Positions 705-16,644 of a DNA stretch of 64,000 bases are shown piece by piece. The notes beneath the pieces are model-generated. The model was not told the DNA's origin and ran no database searches. It saw only the letters and a program-made list of their open reading frames with translations. Within the stretch, counting starts at the first letter, position 1; each line of letters begins with the position of its first letter. The stretch lies in the IMG/VR virus record IMGVR_UViG_3300025109_000006, one strand, 5' to 3'. The stretch is from an uncultured virus (IMG/VR IMGVR_UViG_3300025109_000006). Its lineage: Duplodnaviria; Heunggongvirae; Uroviricota; Caudoviricetes. The translations under genes and the position numbers were made by a program.

Positions 705-1649
705 ATGTCCACAACAAAGACAACCAAGTCCGCTAAACGTCCAACCAAAGCCGCCACCAAAGCCAAGGCGAAAGCTGCTGCTACTACCCGCGCTTCAGCC
801 AAGCACTCGCGGCCTCCTGCGGAGAAGAAGCTTAGCCCCATACGCCGGCGATTTCAAGCTGCCATCGCTGCTAATCAGGCGATCGTCATTGATAGGCTGA
901 AGCTTCTTCAGGGAGAACCGGGCCGCATCCTGGTTCCTGACAATGCGAACCGCGCACTGGTGGAGACTTACATCAAGGGATGTGCGTTTACGTACGGCCC
1001 TCAGCTTAAGCAGACGGGGCTCACGGAGTTCATGTTTGACTTCGCTCGTTTGATGTATCATCCGCAGGCTGACATCCTCGACGGCCTTGACCTGGACGCG
1101 TTCTTCGCGCAGGGCGAGACCTACAACGGCGAGACTCATCTCCACGTCAACGTACCTTACACGACGTTTCTCCAAATCGTCGGACGAGGTCTTCGCGGCC
1201 AGGGGCGTAACGGAGTTGAGCCTACCGAGTCTTCCCTCCTGCACACCACCCGCGTCCTCGCCAGGATGCTGCGTCATGTCGAGACCCTGTCTTGCTGGCA
1301 GGGCGTAGGTATGGGCATAGACTTCGAAACTGGTCAGCCAGCGGAGTTTTTGTTCAAGTGGCCGAAGGAGGTCGCTATCATCAACGAGACTTACTTCCCC
1401 TTCGAGGCCAACGAGCGTCCTTACGACGAGGAGGACTACCAGGCTCGCGGAACTGGCTGGAAGAAACGGCCTGCGAGTGAAGACTCCAGGCCCACCGTTG
1501 AAGATGAGCGTTTCTTCAACGACAACACGGGGCGTTGGGAAGCAACCCAAGTGGAGGACTACAATGCGACTAACGAGCAAGACGCGTCGAATGAACTCAC
1601 TCGGGCGCACAACAAGAACCAGCGTCTCCTCAAGAGCCTGCGCGACTAA
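705..1649 (+). CDS. Hypothetical protein with Lys/Ala/Thr-rich basic N-terminus
   Basis: Long ORF; start moved to ATG 705 behind AAGGAAAG; followed by an intrinsic terminator. Confidence 0.8.
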   Translation: MSTTKTTKSAKRPTKAATKAKAKAAATTRASAKHSRPPAEKKLSPIRRRFQAAIAANQAIVIDRLKLLQGEPGRILVPDNANRALVETYIKGCAFTYGPQLKQTGLTEFMFDFARLMYHPQADILDGLDLDAFFAQGETYNGETHLHVNVPYTTFLQIVGRGLRGQGRNGVEPTESSLLHTTRVLARMLRHVETLSCWQGVGMGIDFETGQPAEFLFKWPKEVAIINETYFPFEANERPYDEEDYQARGTGWKKRPASEDSRPTVEDERFFNDNTGRWEATQVEDYNATNEQDASNELTRAHNKNQRLLKSLRD

Positions 1650-1663
1650 GCGGGCTTACCTTC

Positions 1664-1699
1664 AGCCTCGGGGTGTTAACGCACTCCGGGGCTTTTTTT
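1664..1699 (+). terminator. Rho-independent terminator
   Basis: AGCCTCGGGGTGT-TAAC-GCACTCCGGGGCT 13-bp stem (with G-U pairs) followed by a T run. Confidence 0.85.
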
Positions 1700-1900
1700 C
1701 TGCAGAGACAGGGGGCTTGGAAAGGAAATGTCTGCCGACATTACACTCTTTTCTTATTGGACACACCCCACCTCTCCACCACTTCTCGGCCCTCATCTCC
1801 GAACCTCTCTACCAATGCCGACAGCCAACGGCAGGGGAGTTCACAATCGGTCAACTGGTTTTTTTAAAGTCTAAACCACTTTTCATTTATACTCTACTCC

Positions 1901-2184
1901 GGTTACCCAGTAACCACAAGCGTTACCACAAGTGGGTTACACCATATGGTAGGTACATACTTACATTTAAAAGAGTGTAACCACTGTAACCACATAAATG
2001 AATACATAGATTTTCTGAGTGAATCTTCTTTAAGTTCTTTACTTATACCCTTTTATTGCCCAAGTACAGAGCTACTCAGCCTACCCATCCATACCCTCGA
2101 ACGTGTGGTTACGTGGTTACACCTCGATAGTCCAGGTTGTTCCTGGGTTATCCCGTTACCACCTGTATATAGGTGGTTACACTC
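1901..2184. repeat. Cluster of GTGGTTAC/GTAACCAC direct and inverted repeats around an AT-rich core; candidate replication origin
   Basis: About 10 copies or variants (1901, 1910, 1922, 1935, 1977, 1986, 2105, 2113, 2155, 2173); GAGTGTAACCAC 1973-1984 is the reverse complement of 2173-2184. Confidence 0.7.
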
Positions 2185-2220
2185 ACCCGACACGCTACCC
2201 GTAGTGTCTCCAAGGTAGAT

Positions 2221-2379
2221 ATGATTGGATATATATACACAGGAACTACCAACTTTGTGTGCGGCATCAACCCGTACACATACTGCGTGGAAGGTGACGA
2301 CGATTTTGTATTGATGGTCTGCCTTCAGTATGAAGCATGGGGACACCGCGTAGTCCTCATCGATAGGGAAACAGTTTGA
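2221..2379 (+). CDS. Small hypothetical protein
   Basis: AAGGT RBS-like sequence before ATG 2221; first gene of the + strand early block. Confidence 0.5.
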   Translation: MIGYIYTGTTNFVCGINPYTYCVEGDDDFVLMVCLQYEAWGHRVVLIDRETV

Positions 2380-2605
2380 AGGGAAGCCTTGATAGTCTAA
2401 GGATGTATCGTGCGTAACAAGCACAAAAGCGATGCATCAAGTTGTATGTCCAACTGCAGCTATCAAGCCAGGTTCTCAATGCCTGACCAAAGATTGATCG
2501 CCAATGACATTCGGTGCCCCATGTCGTTGAAGAAAACATATAGGGGCACCATCATCCCAGGCTTTTGACAGTAGTAAGAGGCCAACCCAGAGACAGGAGT
2601 GACCC

Positions 2606-3412
2606 ATGCCAGGACCCGACTACGTCTTGATACCAGCAAGCAACCCTCTGTGCCAAGAGCTACAGCGAGGACACGACAACTGTTCAGCCGGAGCATTACT
2701 TAGTAGTGTCCGACATCATAGAGATCGTACTGGTGAATGGTTGGTCGGTCCAATACCTGACGCACCCAATCCCGATGAGCCTTATGCCAACGTGCTTCCA
2801 GGTGACAACGTAGCTGCCTTACCCGATCAACATAAGAGGAAGAACATATACTTCATCCGCTTCTGGACTCGCGACTGTAAGCAATGTGGCAAAGCAATCA
2901 CGTACAAAGACAACTGGAACGATGGAAAATGGTGCGACACATGTGCAGCCATCGACCCATCATCCCCACCATTATCCCCAGATCAAATGGGCATTGCCCG
3001 CAACACCATAGACATTCTCACCAACGACGCACGTAGGATCATGAGTGAAGCTCGAGCACAAGCCAAGGCCAGTCTCGAAGACACGCGTACCCTTGAACAA
3101 TTGATCACATTCGAACTCACCAAGTTTGGGATCACCACCAACGATATCTCTGTTCGTTACGAAAACGACTACGACATGGGTGCATGGTATTTGACCGGTA
3201 GCTTCGAGATCCCACCAGACCTCGACGATCTTGAAGCAATCGAGGCTTTCGAAACCGCCCTCCCACAATGGTGTTCCATTATTTCTCCCGGTCAATGTAA
3301 AAGTAGTCACAGCAGCCACGAAATATACAGCCGTCACGAGTCGCGCATGTGGGTTTACGGCCCATGCTCAACTGCGATCCGACTCGAAACCGCTTTCACC
3401 AGCATCTACTAA
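2606..3412 (+). CDS. Hypothetical protein with CxxC...CxxC zinc finger
   Basis: AGGAG RBS; CKQC and CDTC motifs. Confidence 0.75.
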   Translation: MPGPDYVLIPASNPLCQELQRGHDNCSAGALLSSVRHHRDRTGEWLVGPIPDAPNPDEPYANVLPGDNVAALPDQHKRKNIYFIRFWTRDCKQCGKAITYKDNWNDGKWCDTCAAIDPSSPPLSPDQMGIARNTIDILTNDARRIMSEARAQAKASLEDTRTLEQLITFELTKFGITTNDISVRYENDYDMGAWYLTGSFEIPPDLDDLEAIEAFETALPQWCSIISPGQCKSSHSSHEIYSRHESRMWVYGPCSTAIRLETAFTSIY

Positions 3413-3431
3413 AGGAGACTAAGCTTTAGAA

Positions 3432-3635
3432 TTACGCGTCGTTTGAAGCGAATTGACCCGAGCATATTCAACGGGTCATATCTCTATACAGTTAATGGAA
3501 AGCCAATATGCTGGTTGCAGGTTCGGCTCCTGCTGGAGTGCTCAGTATGCTCCAATGAACTCTATATAGAGAGCGCGTAAGAGGAGGTGGGACTAGCGTT
3601 GATTACGATCAGCGGCCCACCTCCTCACTTCTTTT
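3432..3635 (+). ncRNA. Candidate structured non-coding RNA with a tRNA-like T-arm
   Basis: Intergenic; nested stems TTACGCG/CGCGTAA, TGACCCG/CGGGTCA, TCTCTATA/TATAGAGA, GCAGG-TTCGGCT-CCTGC; terminal 11-bp hairpin plus T-rich tail. Confidence 0.55.
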
Positions 3636-3658
3636 CCCCTACCCAACTAGGTTTCATC

Positions 3659-3907
3659 ATGATTCTATTCGAGATACGCAGGGCCAATGATCGAGGATCA
3701 ATGTGGGTAAACCCTAATCACATTATCTCCATATTCGAAAAGGAATTCTCATTAACGGTTCCGACCGAGACCGACGGTATTCGAACGGTGACCGAGGATA
3801 GTTTTCTCGGTACAGCCGTTAGTGTTCACAGCTATGAATGGGACCTTGAAACCAAAGAACCCATTGCCTCTATCCTTGCACGACTCCATCACCTTGAAGG
3901 GAAATAA
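3659..3907 (+). CDS. Small hypothetical protein (weak FlbD-like WVNPNHIISI motif)
   Basis: Start moved to ATG 3659, downstream of the structured RNA. Confidence 0.6.
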   Translation: MILFEIRRANDRGSMWVNPNHIISIFEKEFSLTVPTETDGIRTVTEDSFLGTAVSVHSYEWDLETKEPIASILARLHHLEGK

Positions 3908-3910
3908 CTC

Positions 3911-4465
3911 ATGCGTACCCGTACGAACATCACCCCAGACATGACCCGGTTCATTGTGGGCTGCGTCAACCAGGAATGTCCAGCACTTCAAATGGATTGC
4001 GACGAACTCGATGACTGGCTCACACAGCATGGGCGCATGAGGTTCTACATACCCGAGCACAACCCAGACTCATACAGCAAAGTGACTGACGTGTACGGGA
4101 CATTCGAGAAAGGTGAGTACGAGTACTACCACATGGAGACTATCTGTTGCTCGCTCTGTGATGCTGGCGTTGAAGTCTTTGACCACACACCACCACGAAA
4201 GAGATTCCTTGTTGGTCCTCCTAACCCCGACAATTGGATTGAACCCTTTGAGTGCTACCAGGTGAAGGTAACGAACGTACGAAAAGCAGACCTCGGCACT
4301 ATCTTTTGGGACCCACGCACTAAACATATACCCACCGGACGACCACCGACCATTTGTGACATCGAATGTCCCTGCGGCATGCAGGTATCGGTAACGCATG
4401 ACCAATGGATTGAGTTGGTATGCGGAAACTGCAACGCAGAATTGTACCGGATCAACCCAGCATGA
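3911..4465 (+). CDS. Cys-rich hypothetical protein (zinc ribbons)
   Basis: Several CxxC-type pairs; tight operon packing. Confidence 0.7.
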   Translation: MRTRTNITPDMTRFIVGCVNQECPALQMDCDELDDWLTQHGRMRFYIPEHNPDSYSKVTDVYGTFEKGEYEYYHMETICCSLCDAGVEVFDHTPPRKRFLVGPPNPDNWIEPFECYQVKVTNVRKADLGTIFWDPRTKHIPTGRPPTICDIECPCGMQVSVTHDQWIELVCGNCNAELYRINPA

Positions 4466-4698
4466 CACACCCAGTCCCATTCAAAGACCGGTCACCAGAA
4501 GAACAGGCCAAGATGCGCGATGCTCTGGACCGAATCGAAACTCTCGGCCACCAAATGTGGGAACTCGATCGCGAGATCCGACGCCTCACAGAGAAACGAA
4601 ACGCCATCAAGATTGGTTGGCACGCAGCCCGTGACGAATTCTACACCTCCATTGGCAAACCAAATCCGTACCCCGGAAAAGGAAAATCAATACCATGA
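4462..4698 (+). CDS. Hypothetical coiled-coil protein
   Basis: ATGA overlaps with both neighbours. Confidence 0.7.
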   Translation: MTHPVPFKDRSPEEQAKMRDALDRIETLGHQMWELDREIRRLTEKRNAIKIGWHAARDEFYTSIGKPNPYPGKGKSIP

Positions 4699-4958
4699 TT
4701 CTAACTCTTCACCTATCTGATATTGAGGCTGAACTGCTTCGCATTATTCTCAACGTGAATGTTTCATCGCTCACCGAATTGTTCGAGGACGGCGTTGATC
4801 CACTCCCGGTTGAAACTAAAAAGGCAATCGCACTTTGTGAGCGTGTGTCTGAAATGATTGAGATCAAGCAGGCTTTCGCCGCCATCGATGCAATTTACGA
4901 CGGGACCGCCACCCATATTTGTGCCAACGGTCTCCTCGATCCATCCACCAAAAGCTAA
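4695..4958 (+). CDS. Hypothetical protein
   Basis: ATGA overlap with the upstream gene. Confidence 0.7.
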   Translation: MILTLHLSDIEAELLRIILNVNVSSLTELFEDGVDPLPVETKKAIALCERVSEMIEIKQAFAAIDAIYDGTATHICANGLLDPSTKS

Positions 4959-5164
4959 TCCTTCCCACCATTATCAAAGGGGTTGAACCATCATGTCCCT
5001 TAAGCAAGAACATCAACAAGCTGATCAACTATTGCAGCAACAGCACGATCAACATTGGATCGATAGAGAACACGATGATCACACACGTCGCACTCATTGC
5101 CCTACTCACTCTCTACTTCACGATGACGTTCACCATCTTCATCAACTTGTATTAGGAGGTTCCG

Positions 5165-5614
5165 ATGGTCTCACTAAATAAGCCTACACCAACCAAGTCC
5201 CCCAACTGTGAGGTGTATTGCTTCCCTGAATGGCAAGGTACTGCGATGGACCTGATTGTTCTCGTCGGTGTCCTGTTAGGTAAGGGGCTTATTCATTCTG
5301 CTCATATTGTCTATATGGATTACCTTTATCTCGGGTACAACACCAAGCTTGAAATCATACCGGGCACGGGCCTTCAACTCTCCAAGCTTCACCCATCCGA
5401 TCACTGGTTCCCTGACCTAGCCCAAGCCATAGCAAATGAAATCACCTCCGTCATTTCCGACGACCATCGTCCCAATATTTCTTTCGACAAATATGATGAA
5501 GAAAAGGAATGGTGGATTCGCAACAACCTTCGATCCCAGAAGCATAATGACATGCCTCTCAACCATCCATTAAGGATGACCCCCAACAATCCGCAAGGAG
5601 ACAATCATGAATAG
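5165..5614 (+). CDS. Hypothetical protein
   Basis: AGGAGG RBS. Confidence 0.7.
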   Translation: MVSLNKPTPTKSPNCEVYCFPEWQGTAMDLIVLVGVLLGKGLIHSAHIVYMDYLYLGYNTKLEIIPGTGLQLSKLHPSDHWFPDLAQAIANEITSVISDDHRPNISFDKYDEEKEWWIRNNLRSQKHNDMPLNHPLRMTPNNPQGDNHE

Positions 5615-5990
5615 AGTTATCATTACCGGCAACCTCGGAGCAGACCCAACGCTCCGCCAAACAGCAGGCGGCACAGCCGTAGCTAACCTCAGCGTAGCTA
5701 CCAACGAACGTGTCAAGTCTGGCACCGAGTGGGTCGATCATACCGAGTGGCACAACATTGTAGTCTTCGGTGGACAAGCTACTAGCTGCGCCAAGTTCCT
5801 CGCCAAAGGTTCCAAGGTAGCAGTGGAAGGCAAGCTTCGTACTCGTGCATTCACTGACCGCAATGGCCAGGAGCGCAAGAGCACTGAGGTTCTGGCAGAC
5901 CGGGTCGAGTTTATGAGTAAGGCTAAGTCCTCCTCTGCTCCCCCACCAACTACCAGTACTGCCAACAACATGGATGAAATCCCCTTTTAA
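5607..5990 (+). CDS. ssb: Single-stranded DNA-binding protein
   Basis: NRVIITGNLGADP, TEWHNIVVFG, KGSKVAVEGKLRTR and C-terminal DEIPF tail. Confidence 0.97.
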   Translation: MNRVIITGNLGADPTLRQTAGGTAVANLSVATNERVKSGTEWVDHTEWHNIVVFGGQATSCAKFLAKGSKVAVEGKLRTRAFTDRNGQERKSTEVLADRVEFMSKAKSSSAPPPTTSTANNMDEIPF

Positions 5991-6004
5991 TATAGGAGGG
6001 GCTT

Positions 6005-6331
6005 ATGTCCGACGACAAAAAGGGGAAGGGCCGTACACCACCGGCTCCACCCCGCTTACTTTCCAAACGTTCCACCACTCAAACCCCACGCGACCGGTAT
6101 GTTGCGTGGCTCAATCAACTTCAACAACCCAATACTACAATCCTCAAGAAGGGTACAACCCAGCCAACCTCAGGTCTCCCACTGTTACCTGCCAAGGCTG
6201 CGCTGTTGTTAGCTGTATACGACGGACTCATACCAGCTTCACCGGAACACAAACTAAACATTGTGTTTCATGAGCTACTGCGCCACCCGCGCAAAGGTAA
6301 AATCCCCGTATGGCCAATTTCAGATGCCTGA
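6005..6331 (+). CDS. Hypothetical protein
   Basis: AGGAGG RBS. Confidence 0.65.
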   Translation: MSDDKKGKGRTPPAPPRLLSKRSTTQTPRDRYVAWLNQLQQPNTTILKKGTTQPTSGLPLLPAKAALLLAVYDGLIPASPEHKLNIVFHELLRHPRKGKIPVWPISDA

Positions 6332-6570
6332 ATAGAGACTCCGAAGAATGGCATAATGCCTGGGCAATAGTGTTCAATACCCCATTCGCTGAACGCAAAC
6401 GTGGCGCCGTTAAAAGCTACGAGCGTTGGCAGTATATGGGTAGCCATCAGAAACCTGATGACCCTACTTGGTATCACCACTTTCGCCATCGTTACCACCC
6501 CCAGACTGGTCAGTGTGAGCATATTGAAATCCCATGCGCTGACACTACCGCACTCTACACCCCCAACTAA
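6310..6570 (+). CDS. Hypothetical phage protein (WQYMGS...HHFRHRYHP motif)
   Basis: ORF in operon; motif resembles small conserved phage/plasmid proteins. Confidence 0.65.
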   Translation: MANFRCLNRDSEEWHNAWAIVFNTPFAERKRGAVKSYERWQYMGSHQKPDDPTWYHHFRHRYHPQTGQCEHIEIPCADTTALYTPN

Positions 6571-6579
6571 AGGTCCATC

Positions 6580-7509
6580 ATGGAATCATTTAACTCCACC
6601 CCAATCGATGCACTGCGCTTGAATAACGAGATACCTCGGGCTCGAGTCGCACCGCTACCTGAACTCAGGTCCCAGCAAATCATGACAGTCGGAGCACCTG
6701 AAGCTTACCGCACTGACTACCGCACAGTATGTGAAGTGCTGGTACCCGACACTGAGTACCATCCCAAGTCAGGCAACGCCAGCTATCAGCCAGTACCCTA
6801 CGCATCGTTCATCAACGGCGCACGGGATGCAATGGCCAACCAGCTAAACGCTGAACCAGTGTTCGAGACATACGCCTTGAACAAATCAGGTCAGCAGTTG
6901 TTCGGCATGATTGGCTTTGGCTCTGGCCTCACTGGTCAGGCAATCACTGTGGCCCTTCGGTCCAGCTATGACAAGTCCATCGCCAACCAGGTAGCAATCG
7001 GTAGTGCGCCATTCATCTGTGCCAACGGGTGCTTCTCCGGTGAGCATATGATTAGTGCCAAGCACACAACCAATGTCTTCGAGACACTTGGTCGCATGCT
7101 CACGGAAATCACTGACACAGCCGTTGCGCCAGTCATCGAACGCATTCGAATGATTGATGGTTGGAAAGGCATTCCAGTGCACAACGACTTGTTCGGAGCC
7201 TACATGGGTGTCTTGTTCTCTCGTGGACTCATCAAGCCCAACTCGTTCAACGCTGCCTTCCGCTACTGGAACGATTGCCACAACGGTGACCTCCATGAGG
7301 AGCATGGCATGAACGACTTGTTCTCGGCTTACCAGGCTGTCACAGCAGCCGGTCAGCGTAGCCCACCCAACCAGGCCTTCCGCCACTTCGCCGGTATCGA
7401 CCACGCAACCAAGGCTATCGCCGAGGCTGGTGGTGCAGTCACCGACGCACGCATCCCGAGCTTCGACCTTCGGGTTCGTGAGTACGTGGACGTTGGCGAG
7501 GCCAAGTAG
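6580..7509 (+). CDS. DUF932/DUF945-like phage protein
   Basis: YQPVPY, LRSSYDKS, FICANG and KHT motifs typical of the family. Confidence 0.75.
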   Translation: MESFNSTPIDALRLNNEIPRARVAPLPELRSQQIMTVGAPEAYRTDYRTVCEVLVPDTEYHPKSGNASYQPVPYASFINGARDAMANQLNAEPVFETYALNKSGQQLFGMIGFGSGLTGQAITVALRSSYDKSIANQVAIGSAPFICANGCFSGEHMISAKHTTNVFETLGRMLTEITDTAVAPVIERIRMIDGWKGIPVHNDLFGAYMGVLFSRGLIKPNSFNAAFRYWNDCHNGDLHEEHGMNDLFSAYQAVTAAGQRSPPNQAFRHFAGIDHATKAIAEAGGAVTDARIPSFDLRVREYVDVGEAK

Positions 7510-7511
7510 TC

Positions 7512-7715
7512 ATGAATCCAACACTACACACTGACCAAGTATTCAACATGCAAATCACCACGTCCGATGCAGCCCTGCTGTACCGGGCCCTCGGGTTTGC
7601 CGAGAGTGAAACAAATATAGCAAACGTTGTTTCGACCAAATCATACCAACGCCTTCGGGCGCTCAAACATCAGCTTGAAAACCTCGCAACAACACTCGTG
7701 ACATACACCGAGTAG
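7512..7715 (+). CDS. Small hypothetical protein
   Basis: Tightly packed after the DUF932-like gene. Confidence 0.6.
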   Translation: MNPTLHTDQVFNMQITTSDAALLYRALGFAESETNIANVVSTKSYQRLRALKHQLENLATTLVTYTE

Positions 7716-7729
7716 ATCCTTTGTGGTTC

Positions 7730-7833
7730 GCCGGGTCATCCAGATGCTCCAAAACCCGGCATCTTTCCATGCCAGTCCTCGACTCACCAGACCAATCCTT
7801 AGCTCACCGGACCGTACCGATCCAAGCCATTCT
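7730..7833. repeat. Pentamer-periodic unit 0 (hairpin + 13 x NN-DCC; GGH-NN on - strand); candidate guide RNA
   Basis: GCCGGGT/ACCCGGC hairpin 7730-7760, then tttcc atgcc agtcc tcgac tcacc agacc aatcc ttagc tcacc ggacc gtacc gatcc aagcc (7764-7828). Confidence 0.85.
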
Positions 7834-7857
7834 TTCTCACCAACAACAGGAGTACAT

Positions 7858-8409
7858 ATGTACACAACCCAACAGGTAAAGGAAGCTGCCGAACAAGCAG
7901 CAGAAAAAACAGCAGCCACAATCGCAGGCGATCCCACCTTCCGCTTCGTAACAATGGAAGACCTCATCGCAATGTCAGGGCTCACGCCACCTGATGAAAA
8001 CGAACCCAGCCAGATCGTAACGAAACAATGGGGCTTCAACCTTATGCAGTTGCGAGAGAACTGGAGACACCTCGTCCTCGACCAGGTCGGTCGTTGGCCA
8101 AAGACAGTCCGAGGCGTAGGCTTCGAGATCCTTGACCCGCCCAAGAACATCCAGCACGCAGACACAAAGGTGCTGCATGATGTCGTTCGGGCAATCGCCA
8201 AGGGCAAGCGAATCATTCGCAAGACCAGGAACTCCGACCTCACCCAGCAAGAGCAGCGCCGCAAGATCAACAGTGACCTTCGGTTCAGCGCTCTCCAGTC
8301 AGCCGCACTCAGCGCAGAGGCCCAGGCCGAACGCGAACGCATGTGGCGAGACGAACCGTCCACCCCTCAATCAACCACACCTCTCACCCAACCACAGGAT
8401 GACTCATGA
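7858..8409 (+). CDS. Partner protein of the RAMP-like gene (unknown function)
   Basis: AGGAG RBS before ATG 7858; ATGA-coupled to the RAMP-like gene; KTVRGVGFEI resembles a winged-helix wing. Confidence 0.8.
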   Translation: MYTTQQVKEAAEQAAEKTAATIAGDPTFRFVTMEDLIAMSGLTPPDENEPSQIVTKQWGFNLMQLRENWRHLVLDQVGRWPKTVRGVGFEILDPPKNIQHADTKVLHDVVRAIAKGKRIIRKTRNSDLTQQEQRRKINSDLRFSALQSAALSAEAQAERERMWRDEPSTPQSTTPLTQPQDDS

Positions 8410-9035
8410 AAACCGTTAAGTTCCGCCTATCCGGCGACTGTCTGATGCTGCAGAACGGCCAGACCGCCAACCCCCGAAACAAATACGCCAAGCGACTCAA
8501 GGAGTTGAACAAGGACAAGAAGCGCAAGGGCGCAGATGTCGACGCCATCCTCGACAAGATGGCTGATGTCGAGGTCGAGTCCTGCCTATACTGGAACGAT
8601 CACCTCGGCCTACACATGCCATCCGAGAACATACGTGCGGCCTTCATCGATGGAGCCAAGCTCAGTCGAGGCGGAGCAAACGTCAAACGTTACTGCTTCG
8701 TCATGGGCCCAGCCAAGCTCATCTACGACGGCCCCCAGGACATAGAGGGAATCGTAGCTGACAAGAACTTCCATTACGAAGCCATCGTAAAGGTAGGCAT
8801 GGTCAAGGTACCCAAGTCCAGAGCCGTGGTTCACGACTGGTCATGCGAGATCGAAATAGGTCTCATGCCTGGAGATGTCATCGATGAGAGGGATGTCATC
8901 AAGTACATGACTGATGCTGGTTTGTATTGTGGAATCGGAGCAAGCCGCACTTACGGCTTCGGAAGGTTCACCGCAGTAGCAGCCGACGCCAAGGGCAAGT
9001 ACCCCAAGGCTAAGCTCGCAGCCGCAGCCAAGTAA
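8406..9035 (+). CDS. Stand-alone RAMP / Cas7-like RNA-binding protein
   Basis: N-terminal strand VKFRLSG..LML, MPSENIRAAFIDGA helix, SRAVVHDWSCEIEI strand, C-terminal G-rich loop AGLYCGIGASRTYGFGRF. Confidence 0.85.
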   Translation: MKTVKFRLSGDCLMLQNGQTANPRNKYAKRLKELNKDKKRKGADVDAILDKMADVEVESCLYWNDHLGLHMPSENIRAAFIDGAKLSRGGANVKRYCFVMGPAKLIYDGPQDIEGIVADKNFHYEAIVKVGMVKVPKSRAVVHDWSCEIEIGLMPGDVIDERDVIKYMTDAGLYCGIGASRTYGFGRFTAVAADAKGKYPKAKLAAAAK

Positions 9036-9049
9036 TCTATACGAGCAGG

Positions 9050-9311
9050 GAGGCATGTCGTTCCAATAGATGCCTCATCATTCCAGCCCCTACCTATCCC
9101 CACCTGGGCGTACCCGAACCCACCACTCCCCACCAGACCATGTCCTGCTTCCCTTTGATTTACCCACGCCCGGTCGAACCAAGCCTATCCGATCCGAGCC
9201 TGACCTGACCCGACCTAGCCACGCCTTGCTTCCCTTTAGTTTACTCCCGCCCCACCCCGACATCCCGTACCTAGTCAGACCAGTCCTTGCCTTACCCAAC
9301 CAAGCCCTCAC
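9050..9311. repeat. Array of three pentamer-periodic units (81-nt spacing) with conserved linkers; candidate guide RNA array
   Basis: GAGGCAT/ATGCCTC hairpin 9050-9076; NN-DCC runs at 9080-9144, 9166-9225 and 9247-9306; linker TGCTTCCCTTTRRTTTAC at 9146 and 9227. Confidence 0.9.
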
Positions 9312-9320
9312 CGGAGATGA

Positions 9321-9551
9321 ATGATGGCCCATATCTACAACGTGATTCGAGAATGGTCACAAGACAACGGCACTCAGGTCAACGTACTTGCAGTGTTCAC
9401 ACTCCTTAGTGACGCCCAGGATGCCGCAAATGCAGCGGCCACGTACGGCGGAGACGACGAAGACCGTGGCCATGTGGACATTATGAAGTACGCAGTAAAC
9501 CCTGAACATGTCGGCTGGATGAATGATGCAGGCACACGGATAGGGAGGTGA
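9321..9551 (+). CDS. Small hypothetical protein
   Basis: GGAG RBS at the end of the array. Confidence 0.7.
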   Translation: MMAHIYNVIREWSQDNGTQVNVLAVFTLLSDAQDAANAAATYGGDDEDRGHVDIMKYAVNPEHVGWMNDAGTRIGR

Positions 9552-9773
9552 ATGATGGAAGACAAAGAACGCCATCCATTAGAGTGTGAGTATGACCCAG
9601 GCAAAGTCCACCGCTTCACAAGCATGTGGGACAAGCACTGCTGGGGGGACGCTGCCTCAAGACGAGGCATGTCACTGGAAGAATATGTCAGAGACGCTCT
9701 TGAAGAAGAACGAATCGGTGCTGCCGAGGCAGGCCAATGGCGACGGGACAATGATCCCGACTGGAGGTATTGA
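9552..9773 (+). CDS. Small hypothetical protein (possible ribbon-helix-helix-like segment)
   Basis: GGAGG RBS; AASRRGMSLEEYVRDALEE. Confidence 0.65.
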   Translation: MMEDKERHPLECEYDPGKVHRFTSMWDKHCWGDAASRRGMSLEEYVRDALEEERIGAAEAGQWRRDNDPDWRY

Positions 9774-10162
9774 TGCCATACACAAGCGTATACTCCTCAC
9801 CAGAGGAAGCCTTCGAGATTCGCATCCAGTGTACCGAAGAAGAGATTCAGGCCCACTGTGACGCCGCACCAGAGAACGACCGCCGCGACTTCGACAACAA
9901 GGGTGGCCTGACAGTGCCCGTCTACCACGTCTACAAGAACGGTGAACTCAGCAATCGCATGACCTATTGGTACACGCTGGACGAGGAAGAGAACGACGAG
10001 TTCGAGTTCGACATCCGTATGCTACCCAACTTCAAAGAGATCTACGACCACGGAGTTGTCCACGACTTCGTAGACAAGGCGGGTGACCTCCTTCAATACG
10101 CACTTGACCACAAGCTCGTGAGCTTCTGCAATAGCATCCTAACCAAACCACCCAAGGATTAA
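9770..10162 (+). CDS. Acidic hypothetical protein
   Basis: GGAGG RBS; operon packing. Confidence 0.7.
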   Translation: MMPYTSVYSSPEEAFEIRIQCTEEEIQAHCDAAPENDRRDFDNKGGLTVPVYHVYKNGELSNRMTYWYTLDEEENDEFEFDIRMLPNFKEIYDHGVVHDFVDKAGDLLQYALDHKLVSFCNSILTKPPKD

Positions 10163-10164
10163 TC

Positions 10165-10371
10165 ATGAGTAATCTACTTGAATACATGAAAACCGTAGAG
10201 GGAACCCACCAGTTCCGTACTCCTACCGTAGAGGATGACAACATCTTGGCGCTTCGCGTCACCGAGGAAGGAATCATCATCGACATTGAGGATGAGTCTG
10301 GTGAGGTGATTCATTCCTCCTACCAGTTCTGGTCTGACCTAGAGGACATAGCAACAGGTGGTGAGTCATGA
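10165..10371 (+). CDS. Small acidic hypothetical protein
   Basis: AAGGA RBS; operon packing. Confidence 0.7.
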   Translation: MSNLLEYMKTVEGTHQFRTPTVEDDNILALRVTEEGIIIDIEDESGEVIHSSYQFWSDLEDIATGGES

Positions 10372-10631
10372 GGCGCGTAGGTACATCACACACAATACAA
10401 CTCATCCGTACGATTGAGATCGAAGTGGATATCACAGTATACCCTGAGTATGGCGAGATTGAACTCCAAACCGCCATCAATTGTTCGACAGGCAACTCCA
10501 TCGACCTCACTGACGATGAGATTGACCACATCAACGAGACCGCATTGTCTGAGTTCGTACAAGGCTTGGCAGATGCAGAAGCTGACGCCAAAGAAGATGA
10601 ACGTAAGCTTGATGAATATGATGAACGATAA
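10368..10631 (+). CDS. Small acidic hypothetical protein
   Basis: ATGA overlap. Confidence 0.7.
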   Translation: MRRVGTSHTIQLIRTIEIEVDITVYPEYGEIELQTAINCSTGNSIDLTDDEIDHINETALSEFVQGLADAEADAKEDERKLDEYDER

Positions 10632-10642
10632 GGAGGTACATC

Positions 10643-10918
10643 ATGACAGGCCGCATCACAGCAGGACAGATCACCCTCCATCTCGCCCCTGACGAGGAGC
10701 CCTACAATGAGTACGCCAAGGTGGGGATTGTCGCGAGAGCCGTGATCAACGGCTACCTCATACAGTCAACGGGTGTGTGGGGCATCGAATGTCCTGATCT
10801 CGTAGCTGGGTGTCCAATCCCCGAAGATAGCTGGGTGATTGGCGACTACGGAAACGACCAGATCAGCGAACTCCAAGCCATAATCGACGTTCTTATCAAC
10901 ACAGGAGACCAATCATGA
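10643..10918 (+). CDS. Hypothetical protein
   Basis: AAGGAGG RBS. Confidence 0.7.
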   Translation: MTGRITAGQITLHLAPDEEPYNEYAKVGIVARAVINGYLIQSTGVWGIECPDLVAGCPIPEDSWVIGDYGNDQISELQAIIDVLINTGDQS

Positions 10919-11166
10919 GCGACCCAACTGAAACAATACGACGAGCACTTGTTGCTGAGATCAACCGCGACCCGAACGGACGCGAGGCTCTCGAAGCCAG
11001 GCACGGCCAGGTCTGGGACACAGGTGAGATGACCACAGACTTCTCAGTCTCACACTTCTTTGCCCCATTCATCTTTGTCACCCGCAGGTCAGACCGAGCC
11101 ACGGGTTCGCTAACATTCCAGCACCACCCACGGTTCTACTTCTCCTTCCAACCCGACGAGGCATAG
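10915..11166 (+). CDS. Conserved-type hypothetical protein
   Basis: AGGAG RBS; GQVWDT...GSLTFQHHPRFYF motif. Confidence 0.75.
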   Translation: MSDPTETIRRALVAEINRDPNGREALEARHGQVWDTGEMTTDFSVSHFFAPFIFVTRRSDRATGSLTFQHHPRFYFSFQPDEA

Positions 11167-11167
11167 T

Positions 11168-11359
11168 ATGGAAAACACACAAGCAAATCGAAAACTGATC
11201 GCTCGTATGACGATGGATACCTTCACCCCTCAAGAGATGGACGAGGCATTGTTATATGAATTGTGCGAACGATACAAACGCGAGCCGCGCCTATTCGAGT
11301 CCGCCGTTTTTGCACATGAACGTTTAGCCAGCGCCCAGGCCGACGAGGTTTCACCATGA
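11168..11359 (+). CDS. Small hypothetical protein
   Basis: GAGG RBS; operon packing. Confidence 0.6.
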   Translation: MENTQANRKLIARMTMDTFTPQEMDEALLYELCERYKREPRLFESAVFAHERLASAQADEVSP

Positions 11360-11607
11360 ATGATGCCCTATACGAACACGTCCGAATGCTTCTTCATACA
11401 GTCGACTGGGATGAGGACGCTAGCGACACAGAAATAATGAACGCCATTGACTGGCGGGGTTTACGCGCAGCCTTTGCTAGGGCGACGGTAAACCCAGATA
11501 CCTACTGCCCCGACTGCAACGGCACAGGGGAACCACTACCAGATGGCGCAGACCACGAGGAATACTCAAGGTGTGGAAACTGCAAAGGCTGGACACACGA
11601 AGGATGA
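11356..11607 (+). CDS. Small protein with DnaJ-type CxxCxGxG zinc finger
   Basis: CPDCNGTG and CGNCKG. Confidence 0.7.
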   Translation: MNDALYEHVRMLLHTVDWDEDASDTEIMNAIDWRGLRAAFARATVNPDTYCPDCNGTGEPLPDGADHEEYSRCGNCKGWTHEG

Positions 11608-11621
11608 AGGAAACAAACACT

Positions 11622-11909
11622 ATGTCTGACTCAACTACTCATGCGCTTAAGAACCTGGAGCGGTACAGCGAGCTTGACTCTCGTACTGCCTACATCATCA
11701 AGATTCTCATCCAAGCGGAGCTTCCGTGCCGGGAGTATGACTCTGCGGATTATCTGGATAAGCTGGCCGATGCGGTTCACAACCTGTGGAACCACTTGTG
11801 CCAACTCGACACGTACAACCTTGCAGCGTGGGACATCGGAGTATGGGAGCTTGCCTCTCTGTACGGTGCTGCCAAGAATGCTCGCACATTCCCCCGTGAA
11901 GAGAAATGA
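11622..11909 (+). CDS. Hypothetical protein
   Basis: AAGGA upstream; operon packing. Confidence 0.65.
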   Translation: MSDSTTHALKNLERYSELDSRTAYIIKILIQAELPCREYDSADYLDKLADAVHNLWNHLCQLDTYNLAAWDIGVWELASLYGAAKNARTFPREEK

Positions 11910-12310
11910 TGCGAGTTGAAGTCTATTGGAATCTCCACAAGAAGTGCTGGAGCGTTCGACACAAGGGAAAGGTGATCGCCCATGAACGCCTGGTCGACCT
12001 CATCGATGTCACATGGGTAGTGCAGCCGGCAGGCAACGCCCGAGTGCGTAGAGAGAAGCGCAAGAACGTCCACGCATTCGCACGAGGAACGTTGGCCGAG
12101 GACGGCATCCTCTACTATTGCTCTGACCTCTGTGGTCCGAACAGAGCCCGGTACGACCCATACGAGCACACAACATTCATGCGTGGATTCGACGGGGAAA
12201 CACTCACGACGAGCAACTACGCCCGCCTCACCACATTGACCAACTACATGACAGACGAAAAGAAGCCACGGGCTTACGCCATCGGAGCTTCTGACCCCAC
12301 CCTCCTCTAA
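11906..12310 (+). CDS. Conserved phage hypothetical protein
   Basis: VYWNLHKKCWSVR...RVRREKRKNVHAF...YDPY motif seen in many phage early genes. Confidence 0.8.
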   Translation: MMRVEVYWNLHKKCWSVRHKGKVIAHERLVDLIDVTWVVQPAGNARVRREKRKNVHAFARGTLAEDGILYYCSDLCGPNRARYDPYEHTTFMRGFDGETLTTSNYARLTTLTNYMTDEKKPRAYAIGASDPTLL

Positions 12311-12337
12311 CCCAACCCCAAAGCCTGGAGACCCCAC

Positions 12338-12787
12338 ATGACCCTCGACGCCGTAACCGCACTCGCCCTCGCGAAGTTCGCACAGAATAAAAACGCCACC
12401 CACTTCAAGGCTCACCTTGCCGAAGGCACTTACCCAGTAGACATCACAGTGTCCCTACTTGGTACCCTTACCCGTGGTGCCCCAGGCGTAACGACCCGAC
12501 GAAACGATAGCGGTAGTCGACACATCGTACGCTACCTACTCGACCGCCTGAACGATGTAGAGTTCTCCGTACTGCACAGAGACCTTGCTGACATCCGCAA
12601 AGGCAACTTCGAGGTCAAGTTCCAGCACCAGTATGACGACCGTCTAAACAAGATCATGCCGTACCGAGACATCCCTCGCCAGGGCAGTACTCGCTTCGAC
12701 GGTGAACTCATTGTCGAGAATGTACCGGAAGAACCTACCGCATACTCCGATGTCCTTATGGGTCTCAACATCGTACACAACCAATAG
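12338..12787 (+). CDS. Hypothetical protein
   Basis: GGAG RBS. Confidence 0.75.
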   Translation: MTLDAVTALALAKFAQNKNATHFKAHLAEGTYPVDITVSLLGTLTRGAPGVTTRRNDSGSRHIVRYLLDRLNDVEFSVLHRDLADIRKGNFEVKFQHQYDDRLNKIMPYRDIPRQGSTRFDGELIVENVPEEPTAYSDVLMGLNIVHNQ

Positions 12788-12798
12788 CAGGTACCATC

Positions 12799-13047
12799 AT
12801 GCAAACCTATTCCCTTTACTGGACTGACATCTCCGGTACAGATCATACTGAGTTTCGTTTCGAACCAATGCCACGAGTCAAGGAGGCATTGTCCCGCTTG
12901 CTCACCGGCCCAGGTCGTATGGTCGTGAAGGAAATCAAAGTAGTCGACGCACTCGACTGCCTCTGTTTCCATTCCATCGACGGCGTACCTATTGGTCCCG
13001 ACGGAAACCCAATGCCACCCCAGGAGAAAACTAATGCCAACCTTTGA
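12799..13047 (+). CDS. Small hypothetical protein
   Basis: AGGT RBS; operon packing. Confidence 0.6.
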   Translation: MQTYSLYWTDISGTDHTEFRFEPMPRVKEALSRLLTGPGRMVVKEIKVVDALDCLCFHSIDGVPIGPDGNPMPPQEKTNANL

Positions 13048-13249
13048 AGTCTGTTGCGTAGCAACAATAGAGATAATGGCCACGTTCGAGGCCCCCAACC
13101 GCGAGGCCGCCGACTCATTAGCAAGCGACATCACCGTCGTGAACTATGCCAACAACACTATCGGTGCCGAAACATATGAAGGCGAAGTCAACCAAGTGGT
13201 TGGCCACGAGATTCATGAGGTCCATTCCGTGACGGAGGTTGAGTCATGA
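13034..13249 (+). CDS. Small hypothetical protein
   Basis: AGGAG RBS before ATG 13034. Confidence 0.65.
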   Translation: MPTFEVCCVATIEIMATFEAPNREAADSLASDITVVNYANNTIGAETYEGEVNQVVGHEIHEVHSVTEVES

Positions 13250-13497
13250 AGAACGAAGACATCACAATCCACGGAGGCCCAGGAGCTTTCGCGCCAGGTC
13301 TCATGGACTGGTGCATGGGTTGCACCAAAACAACATTCGATAACGAGGCTCGCGACATAGCTGCACGGATGTTCGCATTGGCCGGATTCATGCCCGAGAT
13401 ACCCGCCGGTCTCCTTAGACGAATCGCTGACCGCGAGGTGACCTACACAGTCGACGAAGAAGCCAACACCATAACCCTACACAGGAGTGCCTCATGA
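13246..13497 (+). CDS. Small hypothetical protein
   Basis: GGAGG RBS; ATGA overlap. Confidence 0.65.
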   Translation: MKNEDITIHGGPGAFAPGLMDWCMGCTKTTFDNEARDIAARMFALAGFMPEIPAGLLRRIADREVTYTVDEEANTITLHRSAS

Positions 13498-13697
13498 CCA
13501 ACCAAACCCCACCCTTAAAGGAATTACTAACCATAAAAAAATGGATGGAGTTTATGTCTCAACCTGGCCCCAAGGCTGAGATCAACGGCGAACCACAACC
13601 CTACCCAGAACAGGGCCGCAAAACAGCCAAGGCAAATTTGGTGAAGGTCAATGAACTGATTGCCAAGCTTTACCCCGAACACGATGCAAAGGAGTAA
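13494..13697 (+). CDS. Small hypothetical protein
   Basis: AGGAG RBS; ATGA overlap. Confidence 0.65.
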   Translation: MTNQTPPLKELLTIKKWMEFMSQPGPKAEINGEPQPYPEQGRKTAKANLVKVNELIAKLYPEHDAKE

Positions 13698-13700
13698 CCC

Positions 13701-14006
13701 GTGTTCCACATGATCACAGACAACATCGAGGCCTATCGACGGGCCGTACAAGACACGACCATCGCATCGAACGCAGACATCACATCTGCCGGAAACGGCT
13801 TCAGAGACCCTGACCTGTACCAGAACCTATGCGACTGCAAAGAAGAGGAACGCATTCGCTACGAAGGATTGATTTCTGTGATCATGATGGAGATCAAAGC
13901 AGCTGCAGCCGAACAGCCCCACAACCCATTCAGTATCAACGACGATGTCAACCAACCCGACCAACCCCCCATTCGAACTGGCCCACCACCAAGGAGAGAA
14001 AAATGA
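13701..14006 (+). CDS. Hypothetical protein
   Basis: AAGGAG RBS; GTG start. Confidence 0.65.
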   Translation: MFHMITDNIEAYRRAVQDTTIASNADITSAGNGFRDPDLYQNLCDCKEEERIRYEGLISVIMMEIKAAAAEQPHNPFSINDDVNQPDQPPIRTGPPPRREK

Positions 14007-14287
14007 CTTTCGCAAGCCACCAACTCGAGGTCGCCCCCGTGACCAAGACCATTCGGTTCACGCCACCGTTGGCTGAACTCATAGCTAAGGTCATTGACCA
14101 CGCCCTCACCTCCGAGGCCTCTATCGACCTCACAACAGAAGAAGGTGATGTCTTAGCGCAACTGTCTAAGGTACTCATGGATGATGGACGTGGTCCTGGT
14201 AGCTCTGATCCATACACTCAGGAACAGGACGACCACATCACATCCGGGGAAGTGGAGATCATCAATGATAATTTATGTACTGGATGA
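14003..14287 (+). CDS. Hypothetical protein
   Basis: AAGGAG RBS before ATG 14003. Confidence 0.6.
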   Translation: MTFASHQLEVAPVTKTIRFTPPLAELIAKVIDHALTSEASIDLTTEEGDVLAQLSKVLMDDGRGPGSSDPYTQEQDDHITSGEVEIINDNLCTG

Positions 14288-14507
14288 CGGTGAGACTTGG
14301 ACCCTCAGTGAGCCAACACCCGTCGCCGTGACCCCAGAACAACTCACCCGGATTGAGGGTGGGGAGAAGGTCTACAACGTGTTCCCAGACTGGGACAAGC
14401 TCCACCCCCCATGCAACTGCGTGACGTGCACGAAAGAGCGCCAACAAAACTACCTTATCATCAAGGCCCAGAAGGAGGCCGCATTCTCCGAGGAGACACC
14501 TGAATGA
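14265..14507 (+). CDS. Hypothetical protein
   Basis: GGAG RBS before ATG 14265. Confidence 0.6.
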   Translation: MIIYVLDDGETWTLSEPTPVAVTPEQLTRIEGGEKVYNVFPDWDKLHPPCNCVTCTKERQQNYLIIKAQKEAAFSEETPE

Positions 14508-15202
14508 AAATGCTTTGGAGACCCACATCGGGAAACAAAAAGACCGGCAACATCCCCCAAGGATACGTCGGCGAAACTAAAGAACAAACAGAAGCGTCGT
14601 GCGCTGGGTGCAGTTGGCGCCGTAAGGACCCGGAGACCGGGACAGGAGGTGGATGCTATTATTGGCAGGGCCAAACGCAGGGTGCCCATCAGTCAATGCG
14701 TGTACGTGAACGTCAGCACCCTGACGAGTACACGCTCGACTACGTAATGCAGAACGCACGCCGAGCCGCTCACTACGCCAGGGCCGCAGTCGGCGGTGAC
14801 CCAAACGTCTTTCATCAAGACGAGGTACAGGAATGGCACGACCGCATCCGTTTCTACTACGGACTCAAGGGCCTCCTCATCTACACACACTTCTTCAAGA
14901 CAAAGGGCGCCCACCTCAAAGGACTCGCCATGGCATCATGCGACACGCTCGCAGAGGCCGACGAGGCAGTCGACGCAGGCTGGAGGGCCGCAGTCACCAT
15001 CACTTCCCACAAAGCACCAGGCGCCAACAAACCACAGATCCGAAAGATGCAGGAGTGGGACGGCCAACAATACACCACCCCCAAGGGGCGTCCGGTAGTC
15101 TTATGCCCTGCCCAGGTCGGCAAACGCGACTGCAACACATGTGGATTGTGCAACCCCAAGTCCCATGAACGGGTACCCATCATCGGATTCCTGCAGCATT
15201 AG
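14504..15202 (+). CDS. Cys-rich phage protein (gp88/DUF7227-like, putative Fe-S or Zn binding)
   Basis: SGNKKTG, SCAGC...GCY, GD, YTH, CPAQ...CNTCGLC and terminal IGFLQH motifs. Confidence 0.7.
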   Translation: MKMLWRPTSGNKKTGNIPQGYVGETKEQTEASCAGCSWRRKDPETGTGGGCYYWQGQTQGAHQSMRVRERQHPDEYTLDYVMQNARRAAHYARAAVGGDPNVFHQDEVQEWHDRIRFYYGLKGLLIYTHFFKTKGAHLKGLAMASCDTLAEADEAVDAGWRAAVTITSHKAPGANKPQIRKMQEWDGQQYTTPKGRPVVLCPAQVGKRDCNTCGLCNPKSHERVPIIGFLQH

Positions 15203-15211
15203 CCACAACAT

Positions 15212-15240
15212 TTGACACCGTGATCCTCTCACGGTATCTA
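15212..15240 (+). promoter_or_regulatory. Sigma70-type promoter
   Basis: TTGACA-N17-TATCTA; spacer is an inverted repeat (ACCGTGA/TCACGGT). Confidence 0.6.
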
Positions 15241-15246
15241 TATCGG

Positions 15247-15340
15247 GACCATTAATTTTGGTCAGTCCGAAACATCTGGGGCTTGCCCCACTACGCCCGT
15301 CTGGTCTTTTTCACTTCCGCCAGTCGGGCGTTTTCTTTTT
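15247..15340 (+). ncRNA. Candidate ~95-nt small RNA
   Basis: Lies between a promoter and a terminator-like hairpin; internal hairpins GACCA/TGGTC and TGGGGC/GCCCCA; no credible ORF. Confidence 0.4.
15293..15340 (+). terminator. Intrinsic terminator at the end of the early block
   Basis: ACGCCCG.CTGG / CCAG.CGGGCGT stem followed by TTTCTTTTT. Confidence 0.6.
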
Positions 15341-15716
15341 ACTTCAGCTCTCGCCGTTTCCCAATCGCCTCCCCACAACCATGGCCCATCTCTATTTGCG
15401 CCTCTCCATCATCCTTCTCCCCACCATTGGCTTTCTTCAAATCGGTCAACTCGCCGCCCATTTCCTCGGCAACTGCCAAAAGCTGTTCTGCAAATGCCTC
15501 TTGGTTTTCAGCCCCCTCTGCAATTTGCTTCGCCATCTCCCTCAACTTCTCTGCAGGTGATCCCCCATCGGTCAACTGCGCTTCGGGTTTGTCGGAATGC
15601 CCGAGAATCATCTCTTTACGCACGGCGCCGAACCCAGGCCCTGAGAAGTCTGGCATCTCTTCCCCTGCTGCCTCACGACGTGCGATGATTAAAAGCTGTG
15701 GTTGTGAACTGTGCAT
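15339..15716 (-). CDS. Acidic hypothetical protein
   Basis: GAGGGAG RBS; Glu-rich helical sequence. Confidence 0.65.
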   Translation of the reverse strand: MHSSQPQLLIIARREAAGEEMPDFSGPGFGAVRKEMILGHSDKPEAQLTDGGSPAEKLREMAKQIAEGAENQEAFAEQLLAVAEEMGGELTDLKKANGGEKDDGEAQIEMGHGCGEAIGKRRELK

Positions 15717-15762
15717 GGCGGATCTCCCTCGATTTACCCTAACACATTTTTACCCGCTAGTT

Positions 15763-16320: not shown

Positions 16321-16381
16321 ATTGGAAGTCTACCTGGTTTGCTCAGAGGGTACCACAGCGCAACTACAATGTCGTTAACGC

Positions 16382-16410
16382 TTGACACATACATACCACT
16401 GCGGTATCTT
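16382..16410 (+). promoter_or_regulatory. Sigma70-type promoter
   Basis: TTGACA-N17-TATCTT upstream of the gene at 16426. Confidence 0.65.
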
Positions 16411-16425
16411 TTATTGAGGTGACCT

Positions 16426-16644
16426 ATGGCTCGTAACACATTCAATCCTGCGCCCCTACCTGAACCAGTCTTAACTGAGTTGGGTCGATTTAAAGCTTAT
16501 AATATAACCAGAACTGCCATTGGCTATCGCCCACTTGCTGAAGTCTCATGTGCTTCATGCGGTAAGTGGCACGGCCCAACCTGGCCAACGGTTGAGAACC
16601 TACGCAAGTTATGTAACCGTGGCCATTGCTGGGGTTGCTTCTAA
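16426..16644 (+). CDS. Small zinc-finger protein
   Basis: GAGGTG RBS; CASC...H...C...HCWGC. Confidence 0.65.
   Translation: MARNTFNPAPLPEPVLTELGRFKAYNITRTAIGYRPLAEVSCASCGKWHGPTWPTVENLRKLCNRGHCWGCF

Follow-up and report, generated by a model that had tools for sequence, protein, structure and literature searches.

A phage VIPR locus from a branch whose five-nucleotide repeats depart from the characterised G-G code

VIPR was published in April 2026 as a CRISPR-related, RNA-guided DNA silencer (bioRxiv 10.64898/2026.04.26.720920). In the accessible parts of that report, VIPR loci are described as phage-borne and as consisting of a minimal RAMP protein (Vipr), an accessory gene (vap) and guide RNAs (vrRNAs), each of which comprises 9-16 YNNGG repeats and, behind them, an invariable 3' tail. 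Pairing with double-stranded DNA is through the NN letters, and one target base is skipped per repeat; the SUSP1 locus carries one vrRNA upstream and three downstream of its genes, and no self-targets were reported (10.64898/2026.04.26.720920). Here we describe a locus of this kind between positions 7717 and 9312 of a 64,000-nucleotide stretch of an uncultured tailed phage (IMG/VR record IMGVR_UViG_3300025109_000006; the whole stretch is called the window). Its pentamer tracts carry C-C on the strand on which the characterised loci carry G-G.

As far as the two papers were accessible, GG is fixed in all characterised vrRNAs (10.64898/2026.04.26.720920, 10.64898/2026.04.26.720927). According to the accessible text of the structure paper, the first G (G1) is read by H17 and D177, the second (G2) lies between R138 and W178, and the following pyrimidine (Y3) occupies a pocket formed by E71, M72, R179, C173 and T175, from which purines are excluded (10.64898/2026.04.26.720927). 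Other repeats are on record: 'NNNGG', 'YNNNG' and 'NNNNG' are listed in the Methods of the founding paper (10.64898/2026.04.26.720920), and GAC/NN, CAC/NN, WGT/NN and TGH/NN are given among 21 clusters in a further preprint, again in its accessible part (bioRxiv 10.64898/2026.10.21.760802). The main texts of 10.64898/2026.04.26.720920 and 10.64898/2026.10.21.760802, as far as readable, contain no mention of a C-C constant part or of arrays antisense to vipr, and their figures or supplements may show such a clade. In the readable portions of these VIPR texts 'antisense' is used for target strands only, and 'opposite' and 'convergent' are absent.

The original prediction had described a 209-amino-acid protein (open reading frame 8406-9035) ending in a RAMP-type G-rich loop, flanked by four non-coding units with 5-nucleotide periodicity, and had likened it to VIPR. 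The reading frame and its loop were found as described, the C-terminus being GLYCGIGASRTYGFGRF, and the attribution to VIPR proved correct. When a profile of the window protein family was compared with the PDB (hmmsearch), it matched 36pp_D, 'SUSP1 Vipr protein', with an E value of 2.4e-41 over residues 1-196; in BLASTP, the 209-amino-acid protein was 30% identical to SUSP1 Vipr (gp039; E 4e-22), and it matched phrog_4652 with E 3e-33. Structure prediction followed by Foldseek, which had been proposed as a check, gave a RAMP fold: the AlphaFold (AF2) model reached pLDDT 91.1 and pTM 0.83, and its best PDB matches were all Csm3/Cas7 (9g9f_D, 8yhe_J, 6ifn_F and others; E 7e-5 to 1e-3, TM 0.40-0.49).

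The 183-amino-acid product of the preceding gene matched phrog_5926 (E 8e-8), a family that also matches the genes after vipr in wV8 (E 7e-76) and LESphi2 (E 4e-31), and BLASTP against the SUSP1 neighbour gene gave E 4e-5. The two genes form a minimal vap-vipr operon with an ATGA overlap. Vipr is homologous to SUSP1 Vipr and Vap to the SUSP1-type Vap, and on these protein matches the locus is a VIPR locus whose Vap resembles type II. The kind of system is thus a published one, and protein homology, partner gene, tract size and layout make the locus a real member of it. A tblastn search with the window protein retrieved 127 phage records, among them Felixounavirus, Pseudomonas and actinophage genomes, and SUSP1 itself was retrieved in a parallel search with the protein of a relative, L066. 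Close relatives of Vipr number 27, at 46-96% identity; a scan of genome contigs for relatives yielded one canonical locus only. The features of the locus are as follows.

7717-7763 (+): leader element, TCCTTTGTGGTTC, with a hairpin (GCCGGGT 7730-7736 / ACCCGGC 7754-7760) and ATC, directly 5' of the first tract
7764-7828 (+): putative guide unit 0, 13 N-N-N-C-C pentamers, 11/13 ending in CC and 13/13 in C
7829-7841 (+): pyrimidine-rich extension after unit 0, ATTCTTTCTCACC; followed by the ribosome-binding site AGGAG (7848-7852) and the vap ATG (7858)
7858-8409 (+): vap, 183-amino-acid accessory protein, homologue of the SUSP1-type (type II) Vap
8406-9035 (+): vipr, 209-amino-acid RAMP protein with the G-loop GIGASR (A179, S180), where the canonical loop is GDWR
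9050-9079 (+): hairpin heading the downstream array (GAGGCAT 9050-9056 / ATGCCTC 9070-9076), plus ATC
9080-9144 (+): putative guide unit 1, 13 pentamers, 10/13 ending in CC
9145-9165 (+): invariable extension/spacer, CTGCTTCCCTTTGATTTACCC
9166-9225 (+): putative guide unit 2, 12 pentamers, 11/12 ending in CC
9226-9246 (+): invariable extension/spacer, TTGCTTCCCTTTAGTTTACTC
9247-9306 (+): putative guide unit 3, 12 pentamers, 10/12 ending in CC; homologous units with conserved NN occur in L085, L087 and L088
9307-9312 (+): CTCACC tail of unit 3, abutting the ribosome-binding site GGAG and the next + strand gene (ATG 9321)

The four tracts lie where they had been placed, with 12-13 pentamers per unit as stated, which is within the 9-16 published for vrRNAs; reading the + strand gives 13, 13, 12 and 12. 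Together they hold 50 pentamers; CC closes 42 of them and C closes all 50. Preceding CC is A in 22, G in 16, T in 10 and C in 2, in agreement with the D that had been noted there. Across the 64 kb, a scan for CC at period 5 (threshold, at least 9 of 12 steps) marked exactly these tracts on the + strand and nothing on the - strand; outside the tracts no position exceeded a score of 8, and most positions scored 0-2.

It had further been proposed that each pentamer alternates a near-constant triplet with a free dinucleotide. The constant part proved to be two letters and not a triplet. Over 42 distinct tracts (495 pentamers) of the window clade, C occupies position 4 in 85% and position 5 in 99% on the + strand, and positions 1-3 are free (at most 0.09 bit; position 3, 0.09 bit; positions 1-2, at most 0.08 bit). 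The canonical loci (211 tracts, 2,927 pentamers) hold G1 in 93%, G2 in 92% and Y3 in 86%. Broken canonical pentamers retain either G about alike (G1 only in 157, G2 only in 138). Broken pentamers that retain the second C make up 69/75 in the window clade and 62/70 in a high-GC clade around L066. A proposed search for pentamer tracts beside homologues found period-5 arrays in the relatives, with 7-16 units per tract.

The constant letters and their strand follow the G-loop of Vipr. Among 82 loci, tracts relative to vipr were GG only in 69, CC only in 5, both in 2 and neither in 6. GG lay on the vipr strand in 71/76 canonical loci (two of these with an additional minor CC tract), and 0/76 had CC alone; wV8, LESphi2, SUSP1, four actinophages and one metagenome-assembled genome are examples of GG tracts on the vipr strand. 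All loci with a G[DE][WFY]R loop have GG on that strand. All loci with GASR or GGSR have CC there; these are the window, L003-L006, L066, L085-L093 (nine further close metagenome relatives) and L101-L106 (six further members of the L066 clade). When GTGR is counted with GASR and GGSR, 18/18 distinct relatives are without a GG tract on the vipr strand: 17 read N-N-N-C-C and one, L007, reads N-N-K-G-C. L007 Vipr has 56% identity and is placed by a quick tree as sister of the window clade at 100* support, and its tracts share the hairpin-ATC-tract layout of that clade; its repeat fits the 'YNNNG' class in the list of 10.64898/2026.04.26.720920, as far as that source was accessible. A single clade of all GASR-like proteins was not rejected (approximately unbiased (AU) test, p 0.515), although the free tree splits them into two clades; as the test allows one clade, an independent, convergent origin of the GASR loop is not claimed. 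Separately, three canonical-type loci in which Ser replaces the Gly that precedes D-W/F-R (GLSDWR, GLSDFR; L039, L047, L048) carry GGA/NN and not GGY/NN (45/49 and 25/30 pentamers), which again hints that the constant letters are set by residues of the G-loop.

Set against SUSP1 and the other type II VIPRs, one of which lies in a Pseudomonas fulva prophage, the window shares homologous Vipr and Vap proteins, a phage-borne two-gene module, the 1+3 arrangement of units, 12-13 pentamers per unit, a conserved extension and NN letters that evolve as a code. It differs in having C-C and not G-G, GASR and not GDWR, a replaced H17 and only one invariant letter; the gene order is vap-vipr, as against vipr-vap in SUSP1-type loci. 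No SUSP1-like pseudoknot tail was found at the window tracts. VIPRs with alternative repeats likewise have period-5 arrays with a non-GGY constant part beside a protein of Vipr-like fold, and the minus strand of the window would fit 'NNNGG', so far as the accessible lists go. Whichever strand is read, the branch of 18 distinct loci departs from the characterised code: one letter is invariant and one is held at 85%, the base readers are altered, and either the letters are new or the array is reversed.

That the dinucleotide is the code, as had been proposed, is borne out by the relatives. In 16 pairs of homologous tracts aligned in register (172 pentamers; the pairs are not independent), differences at the five positions numbered 15, 26, 51, 30 and 0, so that the NN letters are held while position 3 drifts. 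Conserved NN, a drifting third letter and a fixed last C are what selection on a two-letter code with a protein-gripped anchor would predict. The units themselves turn over: relatives with 83-96% identical Vipr carry from two to more than six downstream units of differing content, with frame, C letters and tails kept. In L090 the leader hairpin is kept and no tract stands between it and the vap ribosome-binding site, so loss of unit 0 can leave the hairpin in place.

We infer the transcribed strand, the binding of guides by Vipr, the targeting rule and the biological target, and two strand readings have to be weighed. The one we favour, with modest confidence, is that guides derive from the gene strand with the repeat N-C-C/N-N. 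Guides would then come from the vap/vipr strand, as in the other VIPR loci examined. By homology with SUSP1, Vipr protomers would polymerise along the guide RNA, one protomer to every five bases, with the constant letters buried and the two variable ones exposed so that they can pair, with gaps, with double-stranded DNA; the complex would silence a competing mobile element. Each repeat would read N-C-C/N-N, with a free first letter, C as second letter in about 85% and an invariant C as third, compared with G-G-Y/N-N. We lean slightly towards the fuller proposal that Vipr of the GASR branch has switched its gripped letters from G-G-Y to N-C-C and uses sense (NN-NCC)n vrRNAs cut from the leader and trailer of the operon, which would be a second, orthogonal alphabet. 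In the alternative reading, which is possible but which we consider the less probable, the same VIPR system has guides antisense to vap and vipr with a relaxed GGY/NN repeat (G-G-N/N-N, the 'NNNGG' class), and the hairpins at 7730-7760 and 9050-9076 are their 3' tails. The original prediction had taken GGH on the minus strand as its default, and this is the less likely of the two.

The sense reading is favoured because the orientation of tracts relative to vipr is otherwise fixed: 0/76 canonical loci have tracts only on the other strand, and this includes LittleE, in which the module is inverted relative to its neighbours and the tracts are still on the vipr strand. Sense RNA through the tracts must exist, since unit 0 ends 30 nucleotides before the vap ATG. 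Antisense guides would call for promoters inside the beginnings of vap and of the gene downstream of the array. L088 and L089 have an array in common but differ in the DNA beyond it, the place required for such a promoter. For the L066 clade, every tract would require a promoter within the ribosome-binding site and start of vipr or vap. In that clade a conserved -10-like box (GGGGTAGACTTCGCGGTAC or a near variant; TAGACT/TATACT) stands directly before the first tract in 5/6 distinct loci, and the upstream reading frame apparently starts in the opposite direction in at least four of them (by reading of the sequence; reading frames are listed for L066 only). Unit 0 is followed on the + strand by CCCCCGTAAGGGGG in L086 and by TTCTTTCT in L088, which have the shape of an intrinsic terminator (GC hairpin and T-run). 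In L004 a + strand tRNA-Leu starts 10 nucleotides after the last tract, and tRNA processing could define the 3' end of the last guide there. This tRNA-Leu(TAA), at L004 3793-3879 on the vipr strand, has the same sequence in L093.

The tails of the units may point the same way. Every tract has a conserved extension behind it on the + strand (consensus YTGCTTCCCTTT..TTTAC or CTCACC), as published vrRNAs have a 3' tail; on the minus strand a hairpin follows 2/4 units. Internal tracts of relatives are likewise followed by YTGCTTCCCTTT..TTTAC, and CTCACC also stands after tracts in the distant L066 clade. The spacers after units 1 and 2 (9145-9165 and 9226-9246) are 21 nucleotides long, and as antisense guides the internal units would have only such a 21-nucleotide unstructured tail, and those of the L066 clade no 3' tail at all.

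The residues of Vipr bear on both readings. wV8 Vipr has 9/10 of the residues named in the structure paper (by alignment). In the window Vipr, aligned with it, the canonical G-reading residues H17, D177 and W178 are absent, being replaced by Q16, A179 and S180; the pyrimidine-pocket residues E74, C175 and R181 are kept, and so is R139. On the sense strand these residues would fit a first letter that has been freed, a second that has changed and a third that is an invariable pyrimidine. Antisense guides would have both G1 readers replaced although their 'G1' would be 99% invariant, and would place a purine third letter in the kept pyrimidine pocket in 34% (window clade) to 45% (L066 clade) of pentamers. 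They would also sit badly with the pattern of broken pentamers, since canonical loci keep both G's equally and 69/75 are one-sided here. With its N-N-K-G-C repeat on the vipr strand, L007 gives a stepwise path from GGY through KGC to NCC without reversal of the array.

Several observations weigh against sense guides. GG is the hallmark of every characterised vrRNA, and 'NNNGG' is listed in the accessible Methods of the founding paper, where this clade may already be filed. On the minus strand the 50 pentamers have T 22, C 16, A 10 and G 2 times as third letter (38/50 pyrimidines), a pyrimidine bias like that of the canonical form. The two conserved hairpins would be 3' tails on that strand, like the hairpin/pseudoknot tail of SUSP1-type guides: GATG and a hairpin follow units 0 and 1 there, similar to GGATG and a hairpin after the wV8 tract. 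R139, which corresponds to the G2 partner R138, is still present, and the L066 clade keeps His at the position of H17. The link between G-loop and strand may reflect a single event (AU test p 0.515, as above). Consensus promoter scans gave 0 promoter-like sites on either strand between 7300 and 9800, and no guide target was found by any rule tried, so guide function stays putative. In the wider region 1-17000, promoter and terminator scans gave chance-level counts.

The targets also bear on an explanation that we regard as improbable, namely that the protein is a Vipr relative whose tracts are not guides and serve as regulatory leaders, as protein-binding DNA or RNA sites or as a decaying remnant, at a locus that no longer targets. 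In its favour, the tracts lie in 5' leaders beside ribosome-binding sites, the canonical base-reading residues are lost, and searches of the window, of five related phage contigs and of a viral contig collection yielded no target. In the window, 42 guides were compared under 10 rules and none had a target; in the window plus G001-G005, 48 guides under 9 spacing rules gave no excess over shuffled guides. Two exact gapped full-length patterns had 0 hits in the viral contig collection, and a 3-mismatch pattern had 0 hits in the five related contigs. These searches were small and mostly exact-match, and they have little power. A single 21/24 match to a period-5 rule was rejected because it is another guide tract, and 99 hits to an 8-dinucleotide core in viral contigs were attributed to chance because their flanks match only 0-4/8 further letters. 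A decaying or non-guide locus is also hard to reconcile with two intact genes that have 27 close relatives, with units that turn over in number and content while frame, C letters and tails are kept, and with NN letters that are conserved next to a drifting neighbour, as selection on a code and not decay would predict.

A very remote explanation is that the protein is a Cas7/Csm3 orphan, belonging to a CRISPR-Cas system that has its array and other cas genes beyond the ends of the window. Its best fold matches are indeed Csm3/Cas7, and it has weak Pfam matches to RAMPs and Cas6 (E about 0.05). Like Csm3/Cas7 of type III and type VII complexes, it has an RRM/RAMP fold with a glycine-rich loop, and published Vipr structures polymerise along the guide with a fixed step; the step of the CRISPR complexes is 6 nucleotides as against 5 here, and sequence similarity to them is at noise level (E at least 0.05). 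The match to SUSP1 Vipr (2.4e-41) is far stronger than those of the profile to Csm4 and Cmr6 (E 0.05 or worse). The gene lies in a phage, beside a Vap partner and period-5 tracts, and the same small module is present in complete relatives (G002, G005; 73-75 kb). The absence of a CRISPR array and cas operon, already stated in the original prediction, was upheld: no CRISPR-like direct repeats were found in the window and no cas genes in a PHROGs scan of 26 window reading frames (a part of all), which found phage replication and head genes.

The first description of VIPR dates from 2026, and the rule that GGY is gripped and NN displayed rests on one clade. If C-C is indeed what this branch grips, the constant part of the code can evolve, the residues corresponding to H17, D177 and W178 would be three candidates for setting specificity, and an orthogonal protein-guide pair would make it possible to run two VIPR tools side by side in a cell. 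Should the guides be antisense, this would be the first VIPR branch seen here with arrays against the operon, which raises the question of how they are expressed.

Both hairpins are conserved. The upstream one (TGGTTC-GCNGGGT...ACCCNGC-A) was aligned in 9 relatives and occurs with the stems GCCGGGT/ACCCGGC, GCAGGGT/ACCCTGC and GCCAGGT/ACCTGGC, in which changes on both sides are compensated. The downstream one (GAGGCAT...ATGCCTC) is identical in L085-L091 and has the compensated form GAGGCAC/GTGCCTC in L003 and L005. Neither had a match in Rfam. With sense guides the hairpins would be 5' elements of each array, acting in processing or as a start of assembly; with antisense guides they would be 3' caps. 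The minus strand folds with lower energy in most of 14 window-clade hairpins and the plus strand does so in L007; G-U asymmetry was rejected as a test of strand because the G-rich strand folds better each time, which reflects composition. An apparent second copy of the leader hairpin at 16256 was a chance match. AGGGAGG at 9057-9063 could pair, with one of the pairs being G-U, with the CUUCCCU core that the two spacers share on the same strand (9147-9155 and 9228-9236), a candidate long-range pairing.

The window as a whole is a tailed-phage genome, with genes for a single-stranded DNA-binding protein (SSB), primase/helicase, DNA polymerase, a Sak4-like protein, a helicase, the major head protein and the large terminase; small phage reading frames, SSB and replication genes are the neighbours of the locus. 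The true start of the upstream gene is the ATG at 7858, preceded by AGGAG, which gives the 183 amino acids. A 12-nucleotide palindrome, GTACATATGTAC (7853-7864), covers this start codon, and its GTAC..ATGTAC frame recurs at the vap start in L085, L086, L088, L090 and L092; it may be an operator or merely a conserved Met-Tyr-Thr start. In the early region the sequence that best resembles a sigma-70 promoter (TTGACA, 17 nucleotides, TATCTT; 10/12) is at 16382-16410 on the + strand, ahead of a small + strand reading frame near the switch to a minus-strand block. Further along, a giant reading frame of 2,973 amino acids (36328-45249, - strand) contains a circularly permuted YpsA SLOG domain (PF12694, E 1.3e-32, residues 1462-1608).

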